Virus record (IMG/VR): IMGVR_UViG_3300022591_000002
Origin: a virus
Taxonomy: Duplodnaviria; Caudoviricetes
DNA: 64,000 nucleotides
Direction: 5' to 3' (one strand)
The notes beneath the pieces are model-generated. The model ran no database searches and was not told the DNA's origin. It worked only from the letters and a program-made list of their open reading frames with translations. The position numbers were made by a program, and so were the translations under genes. This document shows, in pieces, positions 6,459-61,386 of the stretch. How positions within the stretch are numbered: the first letter of the stretch is position 1; each line of letters opens with the position of its first letter.

Positions 6459-7049
6459 ATGAGATCATTTAAAGAATACTTAACAGAAAGCAAACGCACA
6501 TTTGACTTCAAAGTCAAGATTGCAGGAGACGTATCTGCTGACAGCGAAAAAATGCTAGAAACACTTTTACAGAAGTTTCAAATAGCTAGTTTCAAGAAAG
6601 CGGGCAAAACTCCTATTCAATCAGTTCCATTAGACTTTCCACTAATCAAACACGCAGAAGTTAATATCTACGAAGTAAGTTTAGATTACCCAACAACACA
6701 ATGGGAACTTCACGAGTACCTATCTAGCAATTTAAGAATAGGCAGAGACCAAATAGTAGTTCGCAATCCTTTTGAACCTACAGAAGAATACCAAGCTCCT
6801 AAAGCGGCACATGAAGGCACACTACTACAAGATCCTAATTTTACAGAAGTACCTAGCGTAGACAGCAAGAAGTACTACGGCACCGAATACAATTTGAGCT
6901 TTGTAAAAGCATTGAATGACACAATTAAGGCCCAACGTAAAGAACAAGGCCAACAAATTCCCACAGAGTCAGCCGCAACATATAATGTTGACTCCAAAGA
7001 AAACACAACCAGTCCGATACAACAATCTGACTATGATCCAAGGAAATAA
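6459..7049 (+). CDS. Hypothetical virion (head-internal?) protein
   Basis: N-terminus MRSFKEYLTE resembles T4 capsid-targeting sequence. Confidence 0.6.
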   Translation: MRSFKEYLTESKRTFDFKVKIAGDVSADSEKMLETLLQKFQIASFKKAGKTPIQSVPLDFPLIKHAEVNIYEVSLDYPTTQWELHEYLSSNLRIGRDQIVVRNPFEPTEEYQAPKAAHEGTLLQDPNFTEVPSVDSKKYYGTEYNLSFVKALNDTIKAQRKEQGQQIPTESAATYNVDSKENTTSPIQQSDYDPRK

Positions 7050-7051
7050 TT

Positions 7052-7933
7052 ATGCAAATGATCGACGTAATGAAACGCCTAGCAGAGTTGGATTCTACAA
7101 ATCCTAACGTTGTAAAGGCTGACTCAAAAGAACAAGAGTTCAATGCAGGTAACGCTGTTACTGGCATGAACAACTACACAGGCGAAACAGTTATCGCAGA
7201 AACTTTAAGTGTTGCCGAACTACAAAAATTATCTGGCTTGAACGAAAGTTTAGCAGAATGTGGTCCAATGGGTATGATGGGTGCCGGTCCAATGGGCATG
7301 GCATCTGCAAAACCAACTGCAAACTTTAGCCTAAACGCTTCAGCCGCGACAGGCGATGAAGTAGCAAGTATGCTTACACAAATCATGAACCTAGCAGGCG
7401 TTAAAGATGCAGGTCATCATTTAGGTACTCCAGATTCATTAACAGGCGAACCTCCAGCAGGTAGTCATCACGGCGCAGACGGCATGTCAGCACAAAGCGA
7501 CATTGCTAAGGCATTAGGTCACATTGATAGCATCGAAGACGAAGAAGCAGAAATGGGTGCGGATATGGGCGCAGACTTCAGCGGTCAAATTGGTCACGAA
7601 GTTGATACTAAGTCTCCAACAAACGGTGACGTTGGTGCAATGGCTGACCAAGTTCGCGGTATGGCAGATGAGCTAAGTGAAAAAGATCCAGAAGATTTTG
7701 ACGTTGCTGAAGAACTACGTTTATTTGACAATAGTCCAAAAGAGCAAACACGTGCTTACGATCCAAACGCATTTGCTGATGTAATTAACAGACTACGTGA
7801 CTTTGACACAGTTCCAGCACGTGGTGGTGATAATCCACTAAAGGCACACGCAACTGAGGCAGTTAAATCGGCAGACGACACAGGCTCACTAGCAGAACAA
7901 CTAATGGCAGAATTTCAACAGTTTAAAGGCTAA
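7052..7933 (+). CDS. Acidic hypothetical protein (head-associated?)
   Basis: 293-aa D/E-rich ORF with host-like codon style. Confidence 0.65.
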   Translation: MQMIDVMKRLAELDSTNPNVVKADSKEQEFNAGNAVTGMNNYTGETVIAETLSVAELQKLSGLNESLAECGPMGMMGAGPMGMASAKPTANFSLNASAATGDEVASMLTQIMNLAGVKDAGHHLGTPDSLTGEPPAGSHHGADGMSAQSDIAKALGHIDSIEDEEAEMGADMGADFSGQIGHEVDTKSPTNGDVGAMADQVRGMADELSEKDPEDFDVAEELRLFDNSPKEQTRAYDPNAFADVINRLRDFDTVPARGGDNPLKAHATEAVKSADDTGSLAEQLMAEFQQFKG

Positions 7934-17772: not shown

Positions 17773-18057
17773 ATGGGAAATCTTAAGCCAGGCGCAACCT
17801 ACGTATACGAACGACAAGGCGGTACTGTGTATGCTCGTGAGATGGGCGCACCGGCCGCTGATAGATTTCCTATAGGTTGGGATTGGGAACCAGAAAACAA
17901 TCCCTCCAGAGTTAAAGGCGCAAGTCCAGATAGTATTTTGGAAGCACAACTTTGGTATAGAATTAAAGAAGCATCACTTACCAATCCCACTTTACACGAA
18001 GCTATTGAACGTGTTAAACTGTTATATTACTTGAGCAAAGAAAAAGATGGCACTTGA
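17773..18057 (+). CDS. Hypothetical protein
   Basis: ORF from ATG 17773, coupled to the next gene. Confidence 0.65.
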   Translation: MGNLKPGATYVYERQGGTVYAREMGAPAADRFPIGWDWEPENNPSRVKGASPDSILEAQLWYRIKEASLTNPTLHEAIERVKLLYYLSKEKDGT

Positions 18058-18502
18058 TATCAAACGTGAATTGAATGCAGTAGACAAGAAGATCTATGAC
18101 TTCTATGATAAACTAACTCCTGAAGAACAGAAGGAGTTTAGCCCCTATGTATTGATGCGATACGTTGCTAACGTTCAAGGAGATCCAGATATTCAAGCAT
18201 GGTTCTTAGAAATGACCAATGAGTTAATTAACAAGAATCATTGGGACCTCAGTAAGAATCACAAGGCATTGTTGTGGAAACTGTTTGCGGCATGTGGTGC
18301 AGGAGTGCCATGTTATCATCCTTATCTTAAAGCAGGATCAAAAGAAAAAGCAGTTAAGATTGAAAAGTTATTGGCAGAATTATATCCAGCATACAAGCTA
18401 GAAGATATTAAAATGATGGCCAAGATGATGACAAAAGAAGACAAGAACGAACTATTTGATAAGATGGGCTTTGACAAAAAGCAACGGAAAGAATACGAGT
18501 GA
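18047..18502 (+). CDS. Putative clamp-loader small subunit (gp62-like)
   Basis: FSPYVLMRY...EMTNELIN pattern resembles gp62; replication context. Confidence 0.45.
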   Translation: MALDIKRELNAVDKKIYDFYDKLTPEEQKEFSPYVLMRYVANVQGDPDIQAWFLEMTNELINKNHWDLSKNHKALLWKLFAACGAGVPCYHPYLKAGSKEKAVKIEKLLAELYPAYKLEDIKMMAKMMTKEDKNELFDKMGFDKKQRKEYE

Positions 18503-19194
18503 TGCAATTAGCTGACCAGCCTTTTGTTTGTACACATTGTGGTAAAAGATTCATGCAGGAAAAAACTCTGTATGCCCACATGTGCGAGCCTAAGCGTAGG
18601 TTTATGCAACGAGATGAAAAACGAGTACAGGCAGGCTTCTTTGCGTTCAACAGATATTACAGACTAGTACAAGGTGCAAAGAAAGACAAAACATATGAAG
18701 AGTTCTGTAAGAGTGCTTACTACAACGCTTTCGTTAAATTTGGCAGTTTTGTCAACAATGTTAATCCCCTATATGCTGATAAGTTTATTGATTACGTTAT
18801 TAAGAGCGGAGTAAAACTTGACCATTGGTGTAGAGATGAATTGTATGAAACATATCTATACGAGATGCTTAAGGTTGAACCTGTTGAAAGTGCAATACAA
18901 CGAGCATTAACAACAATGATGGATTGGGGTGAAGCAACAGACGCTCGATGGAACCATTATTTTAGATACGCTAGTCAAAGTAGAATTGTACAAAATATAC
19001 GTGATGGCAAAATTAGTCCTTGGATATTCTTAAACTGTGAATCCGGTAAGGAACTTCTTACAAGTTTAAATCAGGATCAAATGGAACTTATTACAAGTGC
19101 CATTGACTTGCAGTGGTGGGTAGGACATATTAAGAAATTCAAAGCAGATGCAAATGTAGTCAAGGAAGTTTGTAGGGAAGCAGATATACCATGA
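18499..19194 (+). CDS. Zinc-finger (CxxC..H..C) hypothetical protein
   Basis: CTHCGKRFMQEKTLYAHMC at N-terminus. Confidence 0.65.
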   Translation: MMQLADQPFVCTHCGKRFMQEKTLYAHMCEPKRRFMQRDEKRVQAGFFAFNRYYRLVQGAKKDKTYEEFCKSAYYNAFVKFGSFVNNVNPLYADKFIDYVIKSGVKLDHWCRDELYETYLYEMLKVEPVESAIQRALTTMMDWGEATDARWNHYFRYASQSRIVQNIRDGKISPWIFLNCESGKELLTSLNQDQMELITSAIDLQWWVGHIKKFKADANVVKEVCREADIP

Positions 19195-50132: not shown

Positions 50133-50339
50133 ATGAGCGACTCAGCTGTAAGAAGTCTAGCCAAAGCAGTTAGTTGGCGAGTAACAGGAACTATAGATAC
50201 CTTTATCATTAGCTGGTTGATTACGGGTCAAGCCTTACTAGCCAGCGGAATTGCATTTACAGAAATTATGACAAAAATATTATTATTCTGGGCTCACGAA
50301 AGAGTATGGAATAAAATTAGTTGGGGGAAGGATGACTAA
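50133..50339 (+). CDS. DUF2061-like small membrane protein
   Basis: RSLAKAVSWR...HERVWNKISWG. Confidence 0.75.
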   Translation: MSDSAVRSLAKAVSWRVTGTIDTFIISWLITGQALLASGIAFTEIMTKILLFWAHERVWNKISWGKDD

Positions 50340-52032
50340 ACGTATTACTACTCTTGCGTTTAGTATGGCTTTAACTACAGATTACAATTTCCCTTACGTA
50401 CACATACTATTCAAACAGCATTACAAAGTCTTTGGAAAATACCCTGAACAATACGAATGGGTAGATCCGGATTATCTTACGCAAGATATAGAACCTTCTA
50501 TTGTTGCTGATTGGGTTGTTGATAATAAAATTGATATTGTGTTTGCAAGTATGTACTTGTGGAATCATCAATATACTCACATGATCCTTAAAGAAATTAA
50601 GGAACGTAATCCAAACATAACAATCATTGCAGGCGGCCCTCATGTCTTTGGCAATGATCCTGTGTACTTTGAAGAACACCCTTGGGTTGATATCGTTTCA
50701 GATGCTAAAGTATACGGCGAAGCATTCATTGTTGATTATCTTAACGGCAATGAACTAGCTGACGTTACAGGAGCAATTTGGGCAACTGGCAAAAGTAATA
50801 AAAAATTTAACATACGAGATTTTGAATGGGCTCCTAGAGTCTATGCTGACAATATTGACTATGTCAAGAAAGTCATTGCAATGGCTAAATCAGCTTCGAT
50901 GCCAGCCGTAGTTGGATTTGCTATTGAAACTAGTAGAGGATGCCCATTTGCCTGTACCTTCTGTGAGTGGGGTGGCGGCATTGCTACCAAGATGAGTAAA
51001 AAAGATCTAGCCGATGTTAAAGCAGATGTTGCGGCGTTAATATCTGCTAAGGCAGAACGATTCCATATATGTGATAGCAACTTTGGTTTTTGGGACGAAG
51101 ATGTAGCTCTGCTCAAACAAATTGCGGCATCTAATAGAATTGTAGGGTTTCCTAAAGTTGTTACTATCTATGGATGGAGTAAGAATAATAACAAGCGCCA
51201 TTATGAAATGTGTAAGATAATGGCCAACTCAACTATCGAAGGCTTCTATTATGCTCTAAGCATACAAGGGCTGAACGAGTTAACATTACAACAAATTAAA
51301 CGATCTGATTCGCCACTAGAAGATAGATGGGCATTAGCTAGAAAGATATCACAAGACTTCAAAACAAAAGTTCACGTTGAAATCCTAATGGGATTACCGG
51401 GTGACAAATTAGTTGACTATTATAAGATTTTAAACAAACGACATGAATTAGATGCGTTCTCTCATTATGTCTGGATGTTGTTACCAAACACCGAAGCCCA
51501 TACAAAAGAGTACAGAGAAAAGTACAGTCTTAAAACAGCATGGGCGCATAATGTACAACCTAGCTTCATAAAACACAAAGGTCAAAAGATTAACAAAGAA
51601 CTAACGGCCGCTCATGCAAAAAACAGATACGAATATGTAGTTGGCAGTTATTCTTTAGATCCAGAAGAGTGGCTAGAAGTATTCATGCTTGAACGGTTGT
51701 ATAATACAGCAAAGAAGCATACAATAGTATGGCCAGTGTTAGAAGCAAAGCGTGTTCAACTAGGACTTCATCCAAGCGTGTTTTGGAAAAAGATCATGCG
51801 TAACTTTAATAAAATAGATAGTCCAGAGTGGAAGTCTATATGGGAAGACATGTGGCCAAAAATACATAAAATGGTTGAGCCATTACAACCTGGAGAAATC
51901 AGGTACATGGGATCAGCAGGTATTGAAGATGGACACTCTGTGCATCTAAGTGATGTTGCTATTATGTTTTTTGAAAAGTACACAGACAAGTTGTTAGCAT
52001 TAGTTGAACAGGATCAGGAAGGATTACAATGA
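50332..52032 (+). CDS. B12-binding-domain-type radical SAM enzyme
   Basis: N-terminal SMYLWN...IIAGGPH; ETSRGCPFACTFCEW; ICDSNFG. Confidence 0.85.
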   Translation: MTKRITTLAFSMALTTDYNFPYVHILFKQHYKVFGKYPEQYEWVDPDYLTQDIEPSIVADWVVDNKIDIVFASMYLWNHQYTHMILKEIKERNPNITIIAGGPHVFGNDPVYFEEHPWVDIVSDAKVYGEAFIVDYLNGNELADVTGAIWATGKSNKKFNIRDFEWAPRVYADNIDYVKKVIAMAKSASMPAVVGFAIETSRGCPFACTFCEWGGGIATKMSKKDLADVKADVAALISAKAERFHICDSNFGFWDEDVALLKQIAASNRIVGFPKVVTIYGWSKNNNKRHYEMCKIMANSTIEGFYYALSIQGLNELTLQQIKRSDSPLEDRWALARKISQDFKTKVHVEILMGLPGDKLVDYYKILNKRHELDAFSHYVWMLLPNTEAHTKEYREKYSLKTAWAHNVQPSFIKHKGQKINKELTAAHAKNRYEYVVGSYSLDPEEWLEVFMLERLYNTAKKHTIVWPVLEAKRVQLGLHPSVFWKKIMRNFNKIDSPEWKSIWEDMWPKIHKMVEPLQPGEIRYMGSAGIEDGHSVHLSDVAIMFFEKYTDKLLALVEQDQEGLQ

Positions 52033-52763
52033 TAGGAATTATTGGGTATGGTATGGTTGGTAAAGCAGTTGAGTATGGATTTAAAAATACTCAAGTGATT
52101 GTGTCTGACCCTGCGTATGGAATAACAGACATTGTTGATGTTGTCCAAGCTGATCCAGAAGTTATATTTGTATGTGTTCCTACTCCTACAGATGACGACA
52201 AATATAGTTTGTTACGTGGCGTCCTTAAGGATATAAAGCAAACAGGCTATACAGGATTGATTGTTGTAAAGAGTACAGTATTACCGCAGTACATAGAAGA
52301 TTTTGATGTATTATACAATCCTGAGTTTCTAAGCAGAGCAACAGCTAACACAGACTTTACTAATCCTCCTATGTTGATCATAGGTGGTGATCCAATCAAA
52401 GCAAAAGAGTTACTGTCAATATATAAAAAGTATTCAACTGTGGTAACAGACAAAGTATTCATTACAGATATTAAAACTGCTAGCCTAGCCAAATATGCAA
52501 TGAATAGTTTTTACGCTACCAAGGTTACATTTATGAATCAAATGTACGAAGTAGCAGAACAAGTTGGTGCAGACTGGAACAGCGTAACTAATATCTTAAA
52601 AGAACATCCTTGGATGGGAACACATCACTTTGCTGTGCCCGGACCAGATGGTAGCAGAGGATTTGGTGGCCCTTGCTTGCCTAAAGACACAGAAGCATTA
52701 GTTAAAGAGTTTGATGTTGAGTTATTAAGAACTGTACTAGAAATAAACAAAAATTACAGATAA
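52029..52763 (+). CDS. ugd: UDP-glucose/GDP-mannose dehydrogenase (short form)
   Basis: GYGMVG, FVCVPTP, KSTVLP, NPEFL, KYAMNSFYATK, GFGGPCLPKD. Confidence 0.9.
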   Translation: MIGIIGYGMVGKAVEYGFKNTQVIVSDPAYGITDIVDVVQADPEVIFVCVPTPTDDDKYSLLRGVLKDIKQTGYTGLIVVKSTVLPQYIEDFDVLYNPEFLSRATANTDFTNPPMLIIGGDPIKAKELLSIYKKYSTVVTDKVFITDIKTASLAKYAMNSFYATKVTFMNQMYEVAEQVGADWNSVTNILKEHPWMGTHHFAVPGPDGSRGFGGPCLPKDTEALVKEFDVELLRTVLEINKNYR

Positions 52764-53296
52764 GTTTTACTACGCTCTGCAATCAATTTTGCTTGTCGTC
52801 TGTAGTCGTCAAAGTCAAACCCTGTAGGTGTAATCTTTTCAACTGAAACCATAATTCTTAATTTGTCAGGATCAATATTGAATACTGAATGTGGGCTCTT
52901 AACATCTATAGTATGCCACACACCTTTTGGTATAACATGATCCTCAATAATCTCGCTATTGTTGTCAATGCTAGTGTGCCACGCAGTATGAGTTTCGCCA
53001 CCTGTTTCAATTAAAAAACTTGTTACTGATTCTATTCCAGAATCGACGTGCGGCGGAAACACATTCTTAATTGTTCTAACGTGCAATTTATAAATTGGGC
53101 CCAGATCAAAGTATTGTTTGATCCATGTCTCTAATTGTTTTGGAGGATTGTATATGCAAAAATTATCAAATATGTCACCAAAGCCAGACACATTATCGTT
53201 ACCAATTACAGTTTTAGCTAACTCTTGTAAGTGTACTGGTAATGCAGGTATTTCCGGATGGTATGTAACGAATCGACTATTTTCCATTGACTTCAT
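52754..53296 (-). CDS. Cupin/dioxygenase-like protein
   Basis: PPHVDSG, WHTIDVKSPHSV, LRIMVSV. Confidence 0.55.
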   Translation of the reverse strand: MKSMENSRFVTYHPEIPALPVHLQELAKTVIGNDNVSGFGDIFDNFCIYNPPKQLETWIKQYFDLGPIYKLHVRTIKNVFPPHVDSGIESVTSFLIETGGETHTAWHTSIDNNSEIIEDHVIPKGVWHTIDVKSPHSVFNIDPDKLRIMVSVEKITPTGFDFDDYRRQAKLIAERSKTYL

Positions 53297-53356
53297 TCCT
53301 AATGTATGTTAATATTTAATCTATAAATACCTTTATAACAACAAATATGGACAACT

Positions 53357-54463
53357 ATGGTAATTGATCTTAATGTAACCAGCACGTGCAACCTAGCATG
53401 TACCTACTGCTCCGAAGGATATGAGTGCGGATTATCCACCGCCTATGAAGAAAATACAGAAGTAACACTAGACGACATTGAAGAATTCATGTCAAAGATT
53501 GATGACCCAAAACGTGACATTTACTTTTGGGGTGGCGAGCCTTTTGTTAACTGGGAATTCTGTCGCGGTGTTATGGAGAAGTATAAAGACAATCCAAACT
53601 ACAGCTTCTTCTTTTATACCAACGGCGTATACCTAAAGAAATACCTAAAAGAACTTGTACGCTTTCATGAAGCAATGCCAGATCGTTTGAAGATACAGGT
53701 TTCATATGATGGCAAACCTGTTAATGATTTAACACGCTTTGACAAAGCAGGCAATCCCAGTTCTGCAATGGTTAAGAGCAACTACAAGGCCGCTAAAGAA
53801 GCAGGCCTTAATGTTAAAATGAAATCAGTGTTACCTGCAGAACACTTTGATAAAATTTACGAAGCATTCTTAGATGTTATCTCAATGAACGATAACTACT
53901 TCCCAACACCAGACTTATACTCACAGTTAACAGAGGAAGAGTTTGCTCCTAGATTAGAAGTATTGAAACAAGGTCTAGCTAAGATCGCCAAGCACATCTA
54001 TACACATAAGCTACCTCCTGAAAAGTTTGGTTGGTTTATGCAAAGTCGTGCTCTATGCTCCTCTGGTATTAATTATGTATCAGTAGACTTAAACGGAGAC
54101 ATCAGTCCATGTCACGGTTGCATGTACAAAGAGTCACATGCACACGTTATGGGCAATATTTTAAAGACTCCAGACATTGATGCACTGATTAAAGAAAAGA
54201 CAGAAATGTACAAAGGTGCTTTAGCCAATCAACCTTTAATGTGTCAATCATGTGATAGCCAATTTTGTATGAAGTGCAATAGTGCTACTTACGAAAAAAG
54301 CGAAAAAGAAACATATCTTGAAAAATGGTCTGATCACACAAGTAATTGGCAAGTGTGCAAGGTATTCAAAACTAACGAAATTGTCCATCACGCATTGCGC
54401 ACCGCTCTTAAGACTTACAAGAAACCTAAGTTTGAAATTAAAGCGGAACAATGTAGCCTATGA
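53357..54463 (+). CDS. Radical SAM/SPASM enzyme 1
   Basis: CNLACTYC, WGGEP; SPASM CSSG..GDISPCHGC and CQSCDSQFCMKC. Confidence 0.9.
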   Translation: MVIDLNVTSTCNLACTYCSEGYECGLSTAYEENTEVTLDDIEEFMSKIDDPKRDIYFWGGEPFVNWEFCRGVMEKYKDNPNYSFFFYTNGVYLKKYLKELVRFHEAMPDRLKIQVSYDGKPVNDLTRFDKAGNPSSAMVKSNYKAAKEAGLNVKMKSVLPAEHFDKIYEAFLDVISMNDNYFPTPDLYSQLTEEEFAPRLEVLKQGLAKIAKHIYTHKLPPEKFGWFMQSRALCSSGINYVSVDLNGDISPCHGCMYKESHAHVMGNILKTPDIDALIKEKTEMYKGALANQPLMCQSCDSQFCMKCNSATYEKSEKETYLEKWSDHTSNWQVCKVFKTNEIVHHALRTALKTYKKPKFEIKAEQCSL

Positions 54464-55374
54464 TGCAAACAGTTATTCCAAAGATTGTTAGTGCTGGATC
54501 AAAGGACTTTGAAGAAGTTTCCTTTGGTTGGTTGCTGACTGATTGGTGTAACTATGATTGCAGTTATTGTTCTAGCAAAGGTTGGCTAGTTGATAAGTTT
54601 GATAGAAGCAAATATCGCACAGCTTTAATTGTTCCATTTCGATTAAAAAATATAGACGTAAACTTTACAATTGATCTAGCAGGTGGTGAGCCAACGGTTC
54701 ATCCTTATCTTAATGAGATACTTAAAAGCCTAGCTGATATCAATGCTTGCAAACGCATTGTAGTTAATACAAACCTTTCTAGATCATTGCGTTACTTTAA
54801 GAATCTATACAAACATGATAAGATTATGATATCAGCTTCTTATCATGTTGAACACGATAATGAAGACTTTGTTAAGAAATGCCTAGAGCTTAAGAACGAT
54901 AACTTTGTTGTTCATATTAATATTATTGATAATCCCATACACTGGCCTGCAATACTAAAACTAATTGAAACGTGTAGAGCAAATGATATCAATTATGCAT
55001 TTAATTCGTTGCACTCTACTGAGTATAAAGAAATAAATTATACTCCAGAATGTTTTGAAATGTTCAACGACCTTAATACAACTATTAAAGACCGTTACTA
55101 CTACGCATATGAAGACGGTACTACAGAACATCTTAGCTCATTTGAAATTAAACAAAAAAGCCTACACAAGTTTTTAGGTTATAAGTGTACAACACTAAAA
55201 TATCAAATACAATTTGATGGACGCATTGTTAGAGAATGTAACAGAGAACCAGTTACAGCTATGTTTCCAAAACGCAAAGACTTTTTTAAAACAATAACAT
55301 GTCCGCAAGCACAAGGGTGCGATTGCGATGTGATGCTAAATTATTACAAGGAATTACCCAATGTTTACGCTTGA
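54460..55374 (+). CDS. Radical SAM enzyme 2 (twitch-like C-terminus)
   Basis: CNYDCSYC, AGGEPT, NTNLS; C..DGRIVREC..CPQAQGCDC. Confidence 0.85.
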   Translation: MMQTVIPKIVSAGSKDFEEVSFGWLLTDWCNYDCSYCSSKGWLVDKFDRSKYRTALIVPFRLKNIDVNFTIDLAGGEPTVHPYLNEILKSLADINACKRIVVNTNLSRSLRYFKNLYKHDKIMISASYHVEHDNEDFVKKCLELKNDNFVVHINIIDNPIHWPAILKLIETCRANDINYAFNSLHSTEYKEINYTPECFEMFNDLNTTIKDRYYYAYEDGTTEHLSSFEIKQKSLHKFLGYKCTTLKYQIQFDGRIVRECNREPVTAMFPKRKDFFKTITCPQAQGCDCDVMLNYYKELPNVYA

Positions 55375-56485
55375 AATATCCGTAACTGAAAAATGTAACT
55401 TAGGTTGTCCCTACTGTTATGTTGCCAATCGCCCTACATGGATGACTCCAGAAGTTTTTGACAACGCTATGCCAGAGCTATACAATCTAATGTCTCGCAG
55501 TGGAGATAGAGACTATTATGTTAGTTTCTTTGGCGGAGAACCTCTGTTAAACTTTGATTTGATCAAATATGCTGTTCCTAAACTAAAAGCAGATCCAAGA
55601 TGTAAAGGTATTAACATCATTACCAATCTAACTATGATCGATGATGAAAAATACAAGTTTATTAAAGAGAACAATGTAGGAGTTAGTTGGAGTTTTGATG
55701 GAATGAGTTCTAACACCACTCGTCCATTGTTGCCCTTGTTAGAAAACACTAATCCAGAAACTGGCGAGTTGTTCAACGGCATCCTCGATATGTACAACTT
55801 TAAGAAGGATCTTATTATGGATCTAACTAACGGTTGTAAAGTTATGATATGGCCAGGCAATACTAAAGACATGGCAGAGAACTTTGAGTTCTTGCTGGAC
55901 TGGGGCATTGCACACCCTGACTTCAGTATTGTACGTGATGACGTTTGGAAGCGTGACGACATTCTAGAGTTTGGTGTTGAGTGTGAACGTCTAGCTACTG
56001 CATGGATCTCAAAGATTAAACAAGGCATACCATGTTCAGTTGGCTTCCTACGCCTAGCTATATTAGATATCTTGTTTGGGCTTGTAAAAGGTAAACGAGC
56101 GTTTGGTTGCTTTGCAGGAACTAACGGTGGTGTGCTTATGAGCTCAGGAGAGTTTTATCCTTGTGCTCGCTTTGCAAGTAAAAAGATTATGAAAATGGAT
56201 AGTGAATATGATTTCCAGTACTATCAAAAGATATTCAATCCACACAGCTATGACAAATGCCAACCCTGCGATCTTAAGCAGGTATGTAACGCAGGATGTA
56301 CTTACAGTCAAGTAACCAATGACAACAAGCCGTTAGACAGTATCTGTGAATTGTTCCATATCTATTATCAACAGGCTATGCGTGTTGTAGAAGAGTGCAA
56401 AGATGAACCTTTGTTCCAAGATTTAATATTGCATTATCTTGATAACATTGGTGTAGAAAATGAAGGTGTAGAATGCAGGAACTAA
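55361..56485 (+). CDS. Radical SAM/SPASM enzyme 3
   Basis: CNLGCPYC, FGGEPLL; CFAG..GEFYPC; CQPCDLKQVCNAGC. Confidence 0.92.
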   Translation: MFTLEISVTEKCNLGCPYCYVANRPTWMTPEVFDNAMPELYNLMSRSGDRDYYVSFFGGEPLLNFDLIKYAVPKLKADPRCKGINIITNLTMIDDEKYKFIKENNVGVSWSFDGMSSNTTRPLLPLLENTNPETGELFNGILDMYNFKKDLIMDLTNGCKVMIWPGNTKDMAENFEFLLDWGIAHPDFSIVRDDVWKRDDILEFGVECERLATAWISKIKQGIPCSVGFLRLAILDILFGLVKGKRAFGCFAGTNGGVLMSSGEFYPCARFASKKIMKMDSEYDFQYYQKIFNPHSYDKCQPCDLKQVCNAGCTYSQVTNDNKPLDSICELFHIYYQQAMRVVEECKDEPLFQDLILHYLDNIGVENEGVECRN

Positions 56486-56814
56486 AACCTAAAAAGACTT
56501 ATCGTAGTATTACCAGCATCCCTGTTAAGGTTGAAATGCAACCTGTTGAACACAAGGCTGATCGCGTATTAACTACAGATGAACTACAAGAACAAATTGA
56601 AGAAGCACGTAAAGGTAAAGCCAAAGTAGACAGCAAGTACGTAGGTTTTGAGTTAGACGAACGCGGCCATCTGTTTGAATACAAATATGATTATGTTCGC
56701 TATCTAGATAATATGAGTCATATTATTAAAGAAGCTAAGGCACGTAAAAAGAGTAAAGCTGATGACCTTTATCAGAATACACATAAAATGCGTATAAGCA
56801 ATTCACCAACATGA
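56473..56814 (+). CDS. Hypothetical protein within the radical SAM operon
   Basis: Overlaps both neighbouring rSAM genes. Confidence 0.65.
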   Translation: MQELKPKKTYRSITSIPVKVEMQPVEHKADRVLTTDELQEQIEEARKGKAKVDSKYVGFELDERGHLFEYKYDYVRYLDNMSHIIKEAKARKKSKADDLYQNTHKMRISNSPT

Positions 56815-57701
56815 TACCTATTGTAATAGATAAACATCCTAACGCAGATTTCTACGTTGGTGACCAAACAGATAAACCTACTCCAGAAGGATCTGGAGTC
56901 AATGTCTTGTACTTTACTAACAAGTGCAATCTAGCTTGTACATATTGCTATGAAGATTTGCCAGGCCGTCCTCCGCAGATTATGACCAAGGATGAAATCA
57001 GAGAATCTATTGATGCTATCATTGCTAGAGAAAAGCCTGAGAATCAAACGCTGATTGTATTGTTTGGCGGTGAAGCAACACTAGAGTGGGAAAACGTTTG
57101 CTATGCTATGGAATATGCTTACAGCAAGAAAACTAATCTACATTTTAATCTTACTACTAATGGTATCAAATATCTAAGCCAAAAGTTTATTGATGAAACT
57201 ATAGGTAACTATTTTTATAAGAAACGTATGTTGAGTATTGACATTAGCTTCGATGGCATAGGCAACGGTGATCGTATTTTTCATAACGGCAAAGACAGCA
57301 CCGGATCTATGCTAGAGGTGTTGCGTAATTTGGTAAAAAACAATGTTAGATATAGACTACGATATACTATTCAAAAGAATAACATAGATCACTGGTATGA
57401 AGATGCGCACCATATTATTAAAACATTTAAACCCTTGCGATTCATTACATCAGTTGCTTGGTCTACGTTAGATCCTGATACCGACTTTGATAAACTTGAC
57501 ACCGCTAAGTTGAAGTTTAGAGCCGACTGGGTAGAAAAGAAGTTAAGTGTGCCCGTTTGCGAGCTGTTTTGCGACATGTGTAACGGATGCGGCGAACGAA
57601 AAGAACTAAAAACCTACTTTACCAATGAAGGTAATGTAACAACTTACGGGAATTATGAGAACTCTCCAAAGTTCCATGATTTCAAAGAAAAAATACAATA
57701 A
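56811..57701 (+). CDS. Radical SAM enzyme 4
   Basis: CNLACTYC, FGGEAT, TTNG, ISFDG; short CELFCDMCNGC tail. Confidence 0.88.
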   Translation: MIPIVIDKHPNADFYVGDQTDKPTPEGSGVNVLYFTNKCNLACTYCYEDLPGRPPQIMTKDEIRESIDAIIAREKPENQTLIVLFGGEATLEWENVCYAMEYAYSKKTNLHFNLTTNGIKYLSQKFIDETIGNYFYKKRMLSIDISFDGIGNGDRIFHNGKDSTGSMLEVLRNLVKNNVRYRLRYTIQKNNIDHWYEDAHHIIKTFKPLRFITSVAWSTLDPDTDFDKLDTAKLKFRADWVEKKLSVPVCELFCDMCNGCGERKELKTYFTNEGNVTTYGNYENSPKFHDFKEKIQ

Positions 57702-57725
57702 ATAACAAACTAAGAGAGATAATCT

Positions 57726-58133
57726 ATGACTAATAACGACACCCCAACTAACACCGTAATTATTGATAAGCTAAATCACATATTTGAGCTTATTTGTGAA
57801 ATTTCAGCAGAAGATCAGGCGCTTGGCGTCCTTCTTAAAGAGTTTTATACCCTATCGCTAAAAACAGCATCTGAGATTGCACAGCACGGTGGTGACAGAG
57901 ATAAAATTGATATTAGTCAGCATATTAGCATCATCAGCAATATATTAGGTGCTGATGTTCGTGCAATGATGGAACAGGTATTATTAGATCTATCTGCACA
58001 ACAGGTAGAATCAAATAAAGAAGCCGACTCTGCAACTTTAGAATTTATTACTTCTGATTTAGATGATTATGAAAAGTTCATTGCTCAAAACAAAGCTAAA
58101 GAAAGTTTAGATTTTCTTTCAAAAGAAATTTAA
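57726..58133 (+). CDS. Helical acidic hypothetical protein
   Basis: ORF between rSAM 4 and the Cys-rich protein. Confidence 0.65.
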   Translation: MTNNDTPTNTVIIDKLNHIFELICEISAEDQALGVLLKEFYTLSLKTASEIAQHGGDRDKIDISQHISIISNILGADVRAMMEQVLLDLSAQQVESNKEADSATLEFITSDLDDYEKFIAQNKAKESLDFLSKEI

Positions 58134-58145
58134 GGATTTAAGCAT

Positions 58146-58664
58146 ATGGGAAGTCGTAATATATCATCGTTTGACGGAAGCAAGTACGGAGTATCGTATT
58201 CTATATCATCACCTAGTGCCGGAGCAACAATTCAGTCAACCGACTTTGATACTCTAGTTGCAAGATACAATGATGAGTATGTAAGACGTAATCAAGGAAA
58301 TCCCGGTATTGGCCATCCAACTGGTACTATTTCGTCAGATACAATCAAAGGGTGGGCTAATGGCCTAAATGGTTTAGGAGGTCAAGGTGCTACAGGTAAT
58401 AGTTTAGGCGACCCTGGGCAAGACGTTAACTCAACAACCATTAGTCAAATTAATCAAGGTGCGGCATTTTCTGGTGCAGGTGGCGGAGCTCCTGGAAACA
58501 TATCTGGCGGTAATGTGTTTTATGCATCCGACTTTACAGGAGTAGCAAACGCAGTTATTAATGCAGGTGCTCAATGTTTATGTAATTGCAACTACTGTAC
58601 TTGTAATTGTAACTACTGTACCTGTAACTGCGATTACTCATGTACCTGTAACTGTAACTATTAA
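58146..58664 (+). CDS. Gly/Ser-rich protein with 12-Cys C-terminal repeat; putative radical SAM substrate
   Basis: Ends CLCNCNY CTCNCNY CTCNCDYS CTCNCNY; TAAGGA RBS. Confidence 0.8.
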   Translation: MGSRNISSFDGSKYGVSYSISSPSAGATIQSTDFDTLVARYNDEYVRRNQGNPGIGHPTGTISSDTIKGWANGLNGLGGQGATGNSLGDPGQDVNSTTISQINQGAAFSGAGGGAPGNISGGNVFYASDFTGVANAVINAGAQCLCNCNYCTCNCNYCTCNCDYSCTCNCNY

Positions 58665-60456: not shown

Positions 60457-60906
60457 ATGTCAGATCCATTCGGTATTTCGGAAGGAGCAAAGGCTCTTAG
60501 CGGTAGTCTTGATAGCAGCAGAGAGGCTGCAAAAGGATTATCTAAAAGCATTGAAGGAATACAGCAAGACGGATTAGATGTAGCTCAACGCAAAGCAAAT
60601 GAAAGGCGTAGAGCATTACGAGAAGCAGAACATAAGAAGCAAACAGCGTTGATTAAAGCGCTTGAAGATTGGAACAAAAAGAAACAAATGAGCGATCAAG
60701 AAACAAAGTTAAAGATCGACTTTGTTAAAAAGTACGGTGCTAAAGAATGGGATGCTGTTTTAAGAATTAAGTTGGATATTGAGAATATGGAACGCAAAGC
60801 TAATGAAGAATTTCAACATGATCTTAAAGAAGTTCGTAAAGTTCAATTTTATTGTTTTGCTGTAGCAGCTCTAATAGCTTGGTATTTGACTTGGGGAATA
60901 AAGTGA
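60457..60906 (+). CDS. Coiled-coil membrane-anchored hypothetical protein
   Basis: C-terminal TM segment. Confidence 0.65.
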   Translation: MSDPFGISEGAKALSGSLDSSREAAKGLSKSIEGIQQDGLDVAQRKANERRRALREAEHKKQTALIKALEDWNKKKQMSDQETKLKIDFVKKYGAKEWDAVLRIKLDIENMERKANEEFQHDLKEVRKVQFYCFAVAALIAWYLTWGIK

Positions 60907-60987: not shown

Positions 60988-61386
60988 ATGTTTGGCATAG
61001 ATGACATTATTGGAGCTGGTCTTAAAATTATCGATAAGGTAATTCCTGATCCACAAGCTAAAGCTCAAGCTCAATTAGAATTGCAAAAGTTAGCAAACGA
61101 TGGTCAGTTAGCTGAACTTCAAGCTGACATGAACGAACAAAACAATGTATCTGATCGTTGGAAAGCTGACTTGCAGTCTGATAGTTGGTTATCTAAAAAT
61201 ATTAGACCAATGACTCTTATTGCAATTCTTGCTGGTTATTTTGTATTTGCTACATCTTCAGCTTTTGATTTGAATGTAAAACAAGCGTATGTAGAGCTTC
61301 TCGGTCAATGGGGAATGCTCATAATGTCAGCTTATTTTGGCGGTAGAACTTTAGAAAAGATTATGTCTAAAAAGGATGCAAAATGA
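60988..61386 (+). CDS. Holin (GTA 3TM-holin-like)
   Basis: IIDKVIPDP, RWKAD..SDSWLSKNIRP, AYFGGRTLEK; lysis context. Confidence 0.75.
   Translation: MFGIDDIIGAGLKIIDKVIPDPQAKAQAQLELQKLANDGQLAELQADMNEQNNVSDRWKADLQSDSWLSKNIRPMTLIAILAGYFVFATSSAFDLNVKQAYVELLGQWGMLIMSAYFGGRTLEKIMSKKDAK

Follow-up and report, generated by a model that had tools for sequence, protein, structure and literature searches.

A phage cassette of four radical SAM genes and its presumed target, a Cys-repeat fibre-type protein

Positions 53357-58664 of a 64,000-nucleotide stretch of virus DNA (IMG/VR record IMGVR_UViG_3300022591_000002; hereafter the window) hold seven genes on the + strand, four of which encode radical S-adenosylmethionine (SAM) enzymes, named rSAM1 to rSAM4, and the last of which encodes a small protein with a Cys-repeat tail. 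We propose, at a probability of roughly 0.55, that this cassette post-translationally modifies the phage's own fibre-type structural protein. Because the enzymes and the Cys-repeat protein co-occur almost perfectly in both directions across divergent phage lineages, the sequence data support the assignment of the rSAM genes and the Cys-repeat protein to one functional unit. The broader idea, that radical-SAM peptide-maturase chemistry is applied to a structural fibre of a virus, is largely supported as to the unit and the own-protein target.

The cassette is compact: four of its junctions are overlaps of 4-14 nt, and the other two leave gaps of 12 nt and 24 nt. It comprises rSAM1 (53357-54463), a 368-aa radical SAM/SPASM protein; rSAM2 (54460-55374), a 304-aa accessory radical SAM protein without the full SPASM set; rSAM3 (55361-56485), a 374-aa radical SAM/SPASM protein that would be the second core enzyme; the small conserved protein orf113 (56473-56814); rSAM4 (56811-57701), a 296-aa radical SAM protein with a single C-terminal CX3CX2CX2C; the acidic, all-helical protein orf135 (57726-58133), encoded directly 5′ of the Cys-repeat gene; and the 172-aa Cys-heptad fibre-type protein (58146-58664), the presumed substrate. 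The original prediction, made from the DNA letters and their open reading frames (ORFs), had described two small ORFs interleaved among the rSAM genes, and orf113 and orf135 correspond to them.

The Cys protein has a Cys-free N-terminal body of about 140 residues followed by four CxCNC(N/D)Y heptads (58575-58661, + strand), which are the presumed modification site and read CLCNCNY, CTCNCNY, CTCNCDY and, after a single Ser, CTCNCNY. Codons and translation confirmed that the operon ends in a 172-aa protein with 12 Cys in its last 29 residues, and the heptad copies differ by synonymous codons. The family of this protein comprises 523 clusters at 90% identity (E ≤ 1e-3), all of which are annotated as 'hypothetical' or named solely for an S74 domain. 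The family alignment contains an E..RR(G) motif and a pre-repeat helix, I.A..IN.LI...AG.VC, and all of its Cys are invariant. In 298 repeats, the heptad consensus is Cys (100%), Thr (74%), Cys (100%), Asn/Asp/Gln (96%), Cys (100%), Asn (93%), and Tyr (89%); position 7, where it is not Tyr, is mostly Phe, with one or the other present in 98% of the repeats. The Cys protein matches PHROG 26958, a 534-position profile, at profile positions 271-318, and nothing in NCBIfam or Pfam matches it at E ≤ 0.01.

The relatives of the Cys protein place the heptads in a fibre. In four tested homologues, the Peptidase_S74 domain (PF13884, cut-off 22 bits) starts at profile position 1 right after ...CNCNY, with scores of 28-34 bits and the start sequence SD(E/I)RLK..., and an S74 assignment is precomputed for many database relatives, including one that is 74% identical to the window protein. 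In K1F endosialidase and the T5 L-shaped fibre, the S74 domain drives trimerisation of the fibrous part before it and is afterwards released by self-cleavage. Because this chaperone directly follows the repeats in relatives, the heptads would form the tip, at the C-terminal end, of a fibre or spike made of three chains. The protein of the window has no S74 domain and ends at the S74 boundary, and would thus be a version that terminates exactly at the cleavage site. Homologues of 381-835 aa carry the repeat internally or terminally within large proteins, and the predicted substrate resembles a fibre and not a small peptide for secretion.

Several variations on this protein were seen among the loci retrieved in this study (numbered L001 and onward). 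Tandem Cys-heptad paralogues lie 3′ of one rSAM set at L015:4721-7282 (four copies) and L023:7389-9443 (three copies); their bodies differ, their heptad tips are near-identical, and some of them stop after 12 residues of the S74 start, SDE(Q/R)(L/V)K....EY(I/M). Distant members (L022:11842-12576, L007:7494-8012, L033:5417-6025, L087:5557-6237, and others) carry a second Cys/His-rich motif at their start, MAC(T/N/S)GH..C..H..., sometimes with Thr-rich CxxH repeats, which is absent from the window protein and may be a further modification or metal site. Heptad proteins with rSAM genes nearby are also found on contigs binned into bacterial metagenome-assembled genomes of Chloroflexota, Alphaproteobacteria, and Anaeromicropila (L135:2869-3408 and 6569-7921; L138:57-1619; L140:3481-5985, 835 aa), and these contigs are probably phage or prophage. 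A Pfam scan of the genes 3′ of the Cys ORF in diverse loci found no virion families, so a virion-module context is not established in those loci.

The linkage between the enzymes and the tail was examined in both directions. In the forward test, a degenerate DNA pattern for C(D/N)C(D/N)YCTC(D/N)C(D/N)Y, which represents two heptads only, was searched against IMG/VR and returned 45 loci, each encoding 2-25 heptads. When the locus of the Campylobacter phage CPt10 (L001) was added, rSAM genes were detected within the fetched stretch in 35 of the 46 loci by phmmer with the window proteins. Most of the rSAM-less forward loci are cut flanks or small fragments, and eight rSAM genes lie farther out on one of these contigs; four heptad fragments that are 7-33% complete yielded no rSAM gene. 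In the reverse test, an alignment of ten diverse rSAM1 orthologues led to 80 loci, in which real family members were defined by a phmmer E ≤ 1e-23. A Cys-rich C-terminal ORF was present beside the enzymes in approximately 51 of the 54 loci with an rSAM1 family member, nearly always directly 3′ of rSAM1 or at the operon end. Of the loci without such an ORF, L064 is truncated, L070 has a broken gene, and L075 is a true absence; in L099 and L106 Cys-rich ORFs are present but fall under the counting threshold. The co-occurrence of rSAM genes with heptad-tailed ORFs, which the original prediction proposed to look for in IMG/VR, was therefore found from either side, and the opposite arrangement, rSAM clusters without any Cys-rich ORF, came down to one true absence in 54 loci.

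The adjacency is kept at rSAM1 identities down to 28-33% and despite altered gene order. The conserved core consists of an rSAM3-type gene, an rSAM1-type gene, and the Cys protein gene, to which clusters of the window type add rSAM4, orf113, orf135, and sometimes rSAM2. The rSAM1 family gene lies directly 5′ of the Cys-repeat gene in minimal systems, and rSAM4 is present in most heptad-type loci; rSAM2 is within the cluster in only some relatives and 3′ of it as tandem copies in others. Distant rSAM1 relatives adjoin Cys proteins with other grammars, including CxCN(S)D hexads and CHS(N/D) tetrads. Among 50,697 isolate phage records, homologues of rSAM1 and of rSAM3 (E ≤ 1e-10) were found in the same 15 Campylobacter Firehammervirus records, with two further weak matches for rSAM3, and by blastn of the DNA these 15 are the only isolates with the heptad repeat. 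A tblastn search of the isolate phages with the whole Cys protein gave no match, probably because the low-complexity filter masks the repeat.

The heptad DNA matches an intragenic 21-bp repeat of the Campylobacter phages CPt10, CP20, and CP21. In CPt10, the heptad protein is CPt10_1891 (CPT_0180 in CP220), and the rSAM1-type gene CPt10_1931 lies 2.3 kb 3′ of it. The rSAM3-type gene (17806-18843; 42% identity to rSAM3) is located far from the heptad gene, indicating that the link is not mere synteny. Timms et al. reported 11-12 rSAM genes in CP220/CPt10 in 2010 and proposed a host metabolic benefit for them, while the 21-bp repeat of CPT_0180/CPt10_1891 was treated as a DNA repeat unconnected to the rSAM genes (PMC2853527). 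The gene set has thus been present but unrecognised in published Campylobacter phage genomes since 2010.

Evidence at the level of the virion comes from the related phage IBB_35. Its gene 3-9, listed as 1605 nt and 60,318 Da with 'no homologs', is among 38 proteins found by electrospray ionization tandem mass spectrometry in purified particles, at 2.6% coverage (PMC3322345). Its product corresponds to AEF56812, a protein of 534 aa with a computed mass of 60,317 Da and six heptads, and is therefore a heptad protein. The product of the adjacent rSAM gene 3-5 is not among the virion proteins listed (PMC3322345 supplementary tables). Immediately 5′ of gene 3-9, the depositors annotated a 114-nt 'polydeoxyadenosyl region' (IBB_35 contig 3, 10116-10229; L141:5617-5730). 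A heptad DNA match was also seen inside a CRISPR array on the chromosome of Campylobacter concisus RMIT-O23 (CP147775.1; L137:1667-3577; also L139). The array has 26 repeats of about 36 nt each, ending ...CCCCATCTAGGGGATTGAAAC, and the match falls in a spacer at about 2380-2421, which appears to target a heptad-repeat phage gene.

All four enzymes score above the PF04055 cut-off (34.3-57.3 bits vs 29.5 bits) and carry CX3CX2C, which starts at residue 11 in rSAM1, 30 in rSAM2, 12 in rSAM3, and 39 in rSAM4. In rSAM1, which also matches PF13186 (24.7 bits vs a cut-off of 21.5 bits), the auxiliary Cys residues C234, C252, C296, C299, C304, C307, and C334 are invariant in 10 diverse orthologues. 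In rSAM3, the SPASM residues C250, C268, C300, C303, C309, C313, and C329, with an exact CX2CX5CX3C, are 100% conserved in 40 orthologues. The auxiliary set of rSAM4 consists only of CX3CX2CX2C at residues 250-260, with Cys 250, 254, 257, and 260 conserved, and rSAM2 has a short partial set, so that the seven-Cys SPASM set is found in rSAM1 and rSAM3 and not in rSAM2 or rSAM4. Both earlier observations on the enzymes, namely four tightly packed rSAM genes each with CX3CX2C and a division into two full and two shorter SPASM sets, are borne out by these scores and by Cys conservation.

By sequence, the best solved match for rSAM1, rSAM3, and rSAM4 is CteB (5WGG/5WHY), with an E of 4e-19 for rSAM3 against 5WGG. 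rSAM4 matches CteB and SkfB over the core only, and rSAM2 has no solved relative by sequence. The alignments begin at CteB residue 100-101, and only 3-33 residues precede the aligned region in the phage enzymes, indicating that the leader-binding N-terminal domain of CteB is absent from them. The top NCBIfam matches are PapB, the SCIFF maturase, QhpD, the nif11 maturase, and several maturases of Cys-rich peptides, with the anaerobic sulfatase maturase (anSME) and MoaA ranking lower. PapB (NF047865, cut-off 340 bits) is matched at 73.3 bits by rSAM1, 124.8 bits by rSAM3, and 86.7 bits by rSAM4, and is the best NCBIfam match of rSAM3; the best match of rSAM2 is the STM4011 family, far under its cut-off. 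The scores are 53-76 bits for the SCIFF maturase (TIGR03974, cut-off 425 bits), whose N-terminal RRE (recognition element for ribosomally synthesized and post-translationally modified peptides, RiPPs) the phage enzymes lack; 72.8 bits for QhpD (TIGR03906, cut-off 453 bits); 38-47 bits for the CXXX-repeat maturase (TIGR04115, cut-off 350 bits), to which rSAM1 aligns via residues 3-320 of the 359-position model; and 42.6-49.8 bits for anSME (TIGR03942, cut-off 349 bits). The Cys protein lacks a C/S-x-P-x-R motif, and no gene in the vicinity encodes a sulfatase. On these scores, the enzymes are new families inside the SPASM group that modifies proteins and peptides, and none belongs to a curated family. 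As the original prediction had implied, they do not fall into cofactor or sulfatase-maturase clades, and their nearest relatives are the thioether formers CteB and PapB.

The two small proteins are restricted to clusters of the window type. For orf113, 38 homologues were matched, and it belongs to no Pfam, NCBIfam, or PHROG family; its AlphaFold2 model has a mean predicted local distance difference test score (pLDDT) of 63, which is low confidence, and consists of two helices that do not resemble an RRE. For orf135, 37 homologues were found, always encoded between rSAM4 and the Cys gene. It has a weak PHROG match only, and its AlphaFold2 model (mean pLDDT 73) has six helices, for which a Foldseek search of the PDB returned nothing at E ≤ 0.001. 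The ESM Atlas models for the two proteins are of low confidence only and gave no usable feature matches. The suggestion that orf113 or orf135 might have an RRE/PqqD-like fold is therefore not supported by these helical models.

We propose that rSAM1 and rSAM3, with their full SPASM domains, would be the core enzymes, that rSAM4 would be a usual partner, and that rSAM2, orf113, and orf135 would be accessory. The enzymes would bind SAM and Fe-S clusters and abstract hydrogen from repeat residues, and the Cys sulfur would then be joined to a carbon of a neighbouring Asn, Asp, or Thr, so that the fibre tip would be stapled covalently and would withstand reduction. The most likely product would be thioethers between Cys and Asn/Asp/Thr carbons, like those of ranthipeptides or QhpD, because the nearest characterised relatives make thioethers and because the repeat consists almost only of Cys and the acceptor residues of those relatives. 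A more specific and tentative version is that each rSAM enzyme closes one of the three heptad Cys onto a Thr or Asn/Asp nearby, either in its own chain or in another of the three, to produce a polycyclic thioether ladder, which to our knowledge has no counterpart in any virus particle or structural protein. It is suggestive that heptads with three Cys accompany three SPASM/twitch-type enzymes (rSAM1, rSAM3, and rSAM4), and that hexads with two Cys accompany two such enzymes in simpler loci. In the non-heptad tails, Asn/Asp occupies 66% of the Cys+3 positions and 61% of the Cys-3 positions, vs 27% overall; because this enrichment is symmetric, as expected from periodicity, it fixes no crosslink direction. 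A predicted complex of rSAM1, including three 4Fe-4S clusters and SAM, with residues 118-172 of the Cys protein (score 0.02, mark 0.32) weighs neither way.

The enzymes could act on the same heptads through a different chemistry, such as Tyr-centred C-C or C-O crosslinks (cyclophanes), formylglycine formation of the anSME type, epimerisation, or methylation/methylthiolation, and different enzymes may carry out different reactions. The presence of four distinct rSAM classes in one operon suggests more than one reaction, the aromatic residue at heptad position 7 is nearly constant, the weaker NCBIfam matches include the cyclophane-forming YhhB and AmcB as well as DynA/DarW and anSME, and a B12-dependent rSAM methyltransferase homologue is encoded just 5′ of the cassette. 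We nevertheless consider this explanation unlikely, given that three of the enzymes find their strongest matches among thioether formers (CteB in the PDB; PapB and SCIFF in NCBIfam), that Cys is the sole strictly invariant residue class of the repeat, that the Cys protein has no sulfatase-type CxPxR motif, and that the B12-dependent gene is not beside the cassette in relatives. A further step down in probability is a purely structural or metal-binding role for the heptads, for example a Cys-lined triple β-helix with metal or disulfides, with the rSAM enzymes acting elsewhere. CxC repeats are typical metal ligands, metal-holding heptads would be like the His-x-His iron sites in the T4 fibre tip, and the S74 context implies a trimeric β-helical fibre; the many other rSAM genes in heptad phages and the heptad loci without an rSAM gene in the available fragment also fit such a role. 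It would, however, leave aside the near-perfect two-way co-occurrence with immediate adjacency or overlap across very divergent lineages, the exclusively shared distribution among isolates, and the position of the enzymes in the protein/peptide-modifying SPASM group.

The cassette could also encode a diffusible RiPP, in which about 140 residues would serve as the leader and the modified Cys core would be released as a toxin, a metallophore, or an anti-defence factor. The long Cys-free N-terminal part, the C-terminal Cys core, and the adjacent maturases have the appearance of such a system, and the tandem paralogues (L015 x4, L023 x3) resemble multi-precursor loci. We rate this explanation as the least probable of those considered here, marginally behind the structural one: family scans of the cassette proteins revealed no protease or exporter, S74 as the sole cleavage module in relatives removes itself and leaves the repeat on the body, large homologues hold the repeat within or at the end of the chain, one homologue was detected in virions, and no RRE was found on the enzymes or in the orf113 and orf135 models.

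Modification of the phage's own fibre-type protein, the reading that we prefer, has several points to answer. We infer the action of the enzymes on the heptads, and repeated CxC motifs could also serve as metal ligands or make disulfide bonds. All NCBIfam scores are far under the curated cut-offs, so a reaction type is not transferable by homology. No RRE is fused to the phage enzymes and the helical orf113 and orf135 models lack the RRE β-sheet, which leaves substrate recognition unexplained. Heptad loci L011, L017/L040, and L018/L020 have no rSAM gene in fragments of up to 60 kb, and L075 conversely has an rSAM pair without a Cys ORF. The heptad phages carry many further rSAM genes, 7-16 per genome, as judged from PF04055 matches: 16 in G010 (the 207-kb contig of L026), 11 in G006 (CPt10), and seven in G008 (the contig of L037, complete at 214 kb), where the whole set of seven falls inside 12 kb surrounding the heptad gene; the extra genes include ones of the rSAM2 type. 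Finally, the virion support comes from one study, at low coverage, of a distant homologue.

The timing of expression was approached through the DNA upstream of the cassette, where the original prediction had noted a 'late-type motif'. The motif, TATAAATA, is indeed present 5′ of rSAM1 (53322-53329, + strand), but with 2 copies in the window vs 4.5 expected by chance it is not enriched and is therefore uninformative on late timing. Scans for sigma-70 promoters and terminators gave background level only. The claim that the phage modifies its own Cys-rich protein late in infection is accordingly retained as to the functional unit, and as to the own-protein target on the evidence of the S74-bearing relatives and the IBB_35 virion data, and not as to the late timing.

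Upstream of the cassette lies a gene for a truncated UDP-glucose/GDP-mannose dehydrogenase-like (UGDH-like) protein of 244 aa (52029-52763, + strand; PF00984, PF03721), which has the N-terminal and central domains only. A UGDH-like homologue (E down to 1e-117) is directly 5′ of the rSAM genes in 23 of the 54 related loci and is kept even in loci with much more divergent rSAM genes; it could belong to the system or be a leftover of synteny. L070 and other relatives have the UGDH-like gene directly next to rSAM1. In the window, a 180-aa ORF without family on the - strand (52754-53296) lies between the two and appears to have been inserted there, thereby creating the intergenic region in which TATAAATA lies. 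The stop codon of a fifth rSAM gene (50332-52032, + strand), which the earlier annotation had overlooked, overlaps the start of the UGDH-like gene. Its B12-dependent product is of the KedN5-like C-methyltransferase type by Pfam and NCBIfam (140 bits, far under the cut-off), and we rejected it as a member of the cassette because no homologue adjoins the other genes in relatives.

Elsewhere in the window there are genes for a tail sheath and tail tube, for a large terminase, and for replication. The large terminase shares 52% identity with its counterpart in the 287-kb Pseudomonas phage PA5oct group, the Cys protein gene is carried on a 286,920-bp contig, and the stretch is present in pond and viral metagenome DNA runs from three studies, which together identify the source as a freshwater jumbo phage; no RNA run is listed among the sequencing runs that contain the stretch. 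The next-but-one gene after the Cys protein in the window encodes a tail-collar fibre homologue. Two small ORFs 3′ of the tail-collar gene (60457-60906 and 60988-61386, both on the + strand) match no family and contain hydrophobic segments at the C-terminus or in the centre; they could encode membrane proteins that serve lysis or the assembly of fibres.

Thioether formation by radical SAM enzymes is known in small secreted peptides and in a single subunit of one bacterial enzyme. If our proposal is true, the cassette would represent a new kind of virion maturation that finishes a structural and probably host-contacting part of the particle, and would provide, from a natural source, protein rods with many crosslinks and great stability. 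It would also explain the 11-12 radical SAM genes in Campylobacter group II phages, a puzzle since 2010. The family is large, with more than 500 protein clusters, and the Campylobacter phages are cultured and are food-safety candidates, making the hypothesis directly testable on existing virion preparations. In our searches of the literature on phage rSAM/SPASM enzymes, fibres, Cys-rich virion proteins, and Firehammervirus receptor binding, we did not find the system described, in agreement with the earlier statement that no characterised phage pathway has this architecture. A cyanophage rSAM maturase has been labelled merely as an 'antibiotic synthesis gene' (PMC12801897).

Among characterised systems, CteB/CteA (SCIFF, thermocellin) and PapB/PapA (freyrasin) likewise have a radical SAM/SPASM enzyme encoded beside a Cys-rich target, and form S-to-C thioethers, with CteB linking Cys to Thr and PapB linking Cys to Asp/Glu. 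CteB has an N-terminal RRE of about 100 residues, whereas the phage enzymes begin at the rSAM core; CteA and PapA are leader-core peptides of 40-50 aa, whereas the phage targets are fibre-type proteins of 172-835 aa with S74 in relatives. The phage system further differs in having up to four enzymes in one operon and scores far below the family cut-offs. QhpD installs several Cys-to-Asp/Glu thioethers in QhpC, which stays within a larger assembly and is not secreted. It resembles the phage system in being a SPASM enzyme with a retained protein target, and TIGR03906 is among the top matches of the phage enzymes, but QhpC is an unrelated substrate without heptads and belongs to the maturation of a bacterial periplasmic enzyme, not of a virus particle.

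The bioinformatically defined TIGR04115 (CXXX-repeat), CcpM (TIGR04068), and CefB (NF038107) families likewise pair a SPASM enzyme with a peptide of regularly spaced Cys, and the CHS(N/D) tetrad of the distant relative L097 is itself a CXXX repeat, as in the TIGR04115 systems. They differ in that the phage enzymes score below the family cut-offs and the Cys protein matches no curated repeat model. With S74 fibres such as the K1F endosialidase and the T5 L-shaped tail fibre, the similarity lies in PF13884 right after the repeat in homologues, although the window protein is without the domain, and we know of no characterised S74 protein with a Cys-repeat tip or partner rSAM enzymes. The CP220/CPt10 genes are true homologues, with CPt10_1931 as the rSAM1-type gene, 17806-18843 as the rSAM3-type gene, and CPt10_1891/CPT_0180 as the heptad protein gene; next to them, the system of the window is, by its predicted gene content, a four-enzyme jumbo-phage version without S74.

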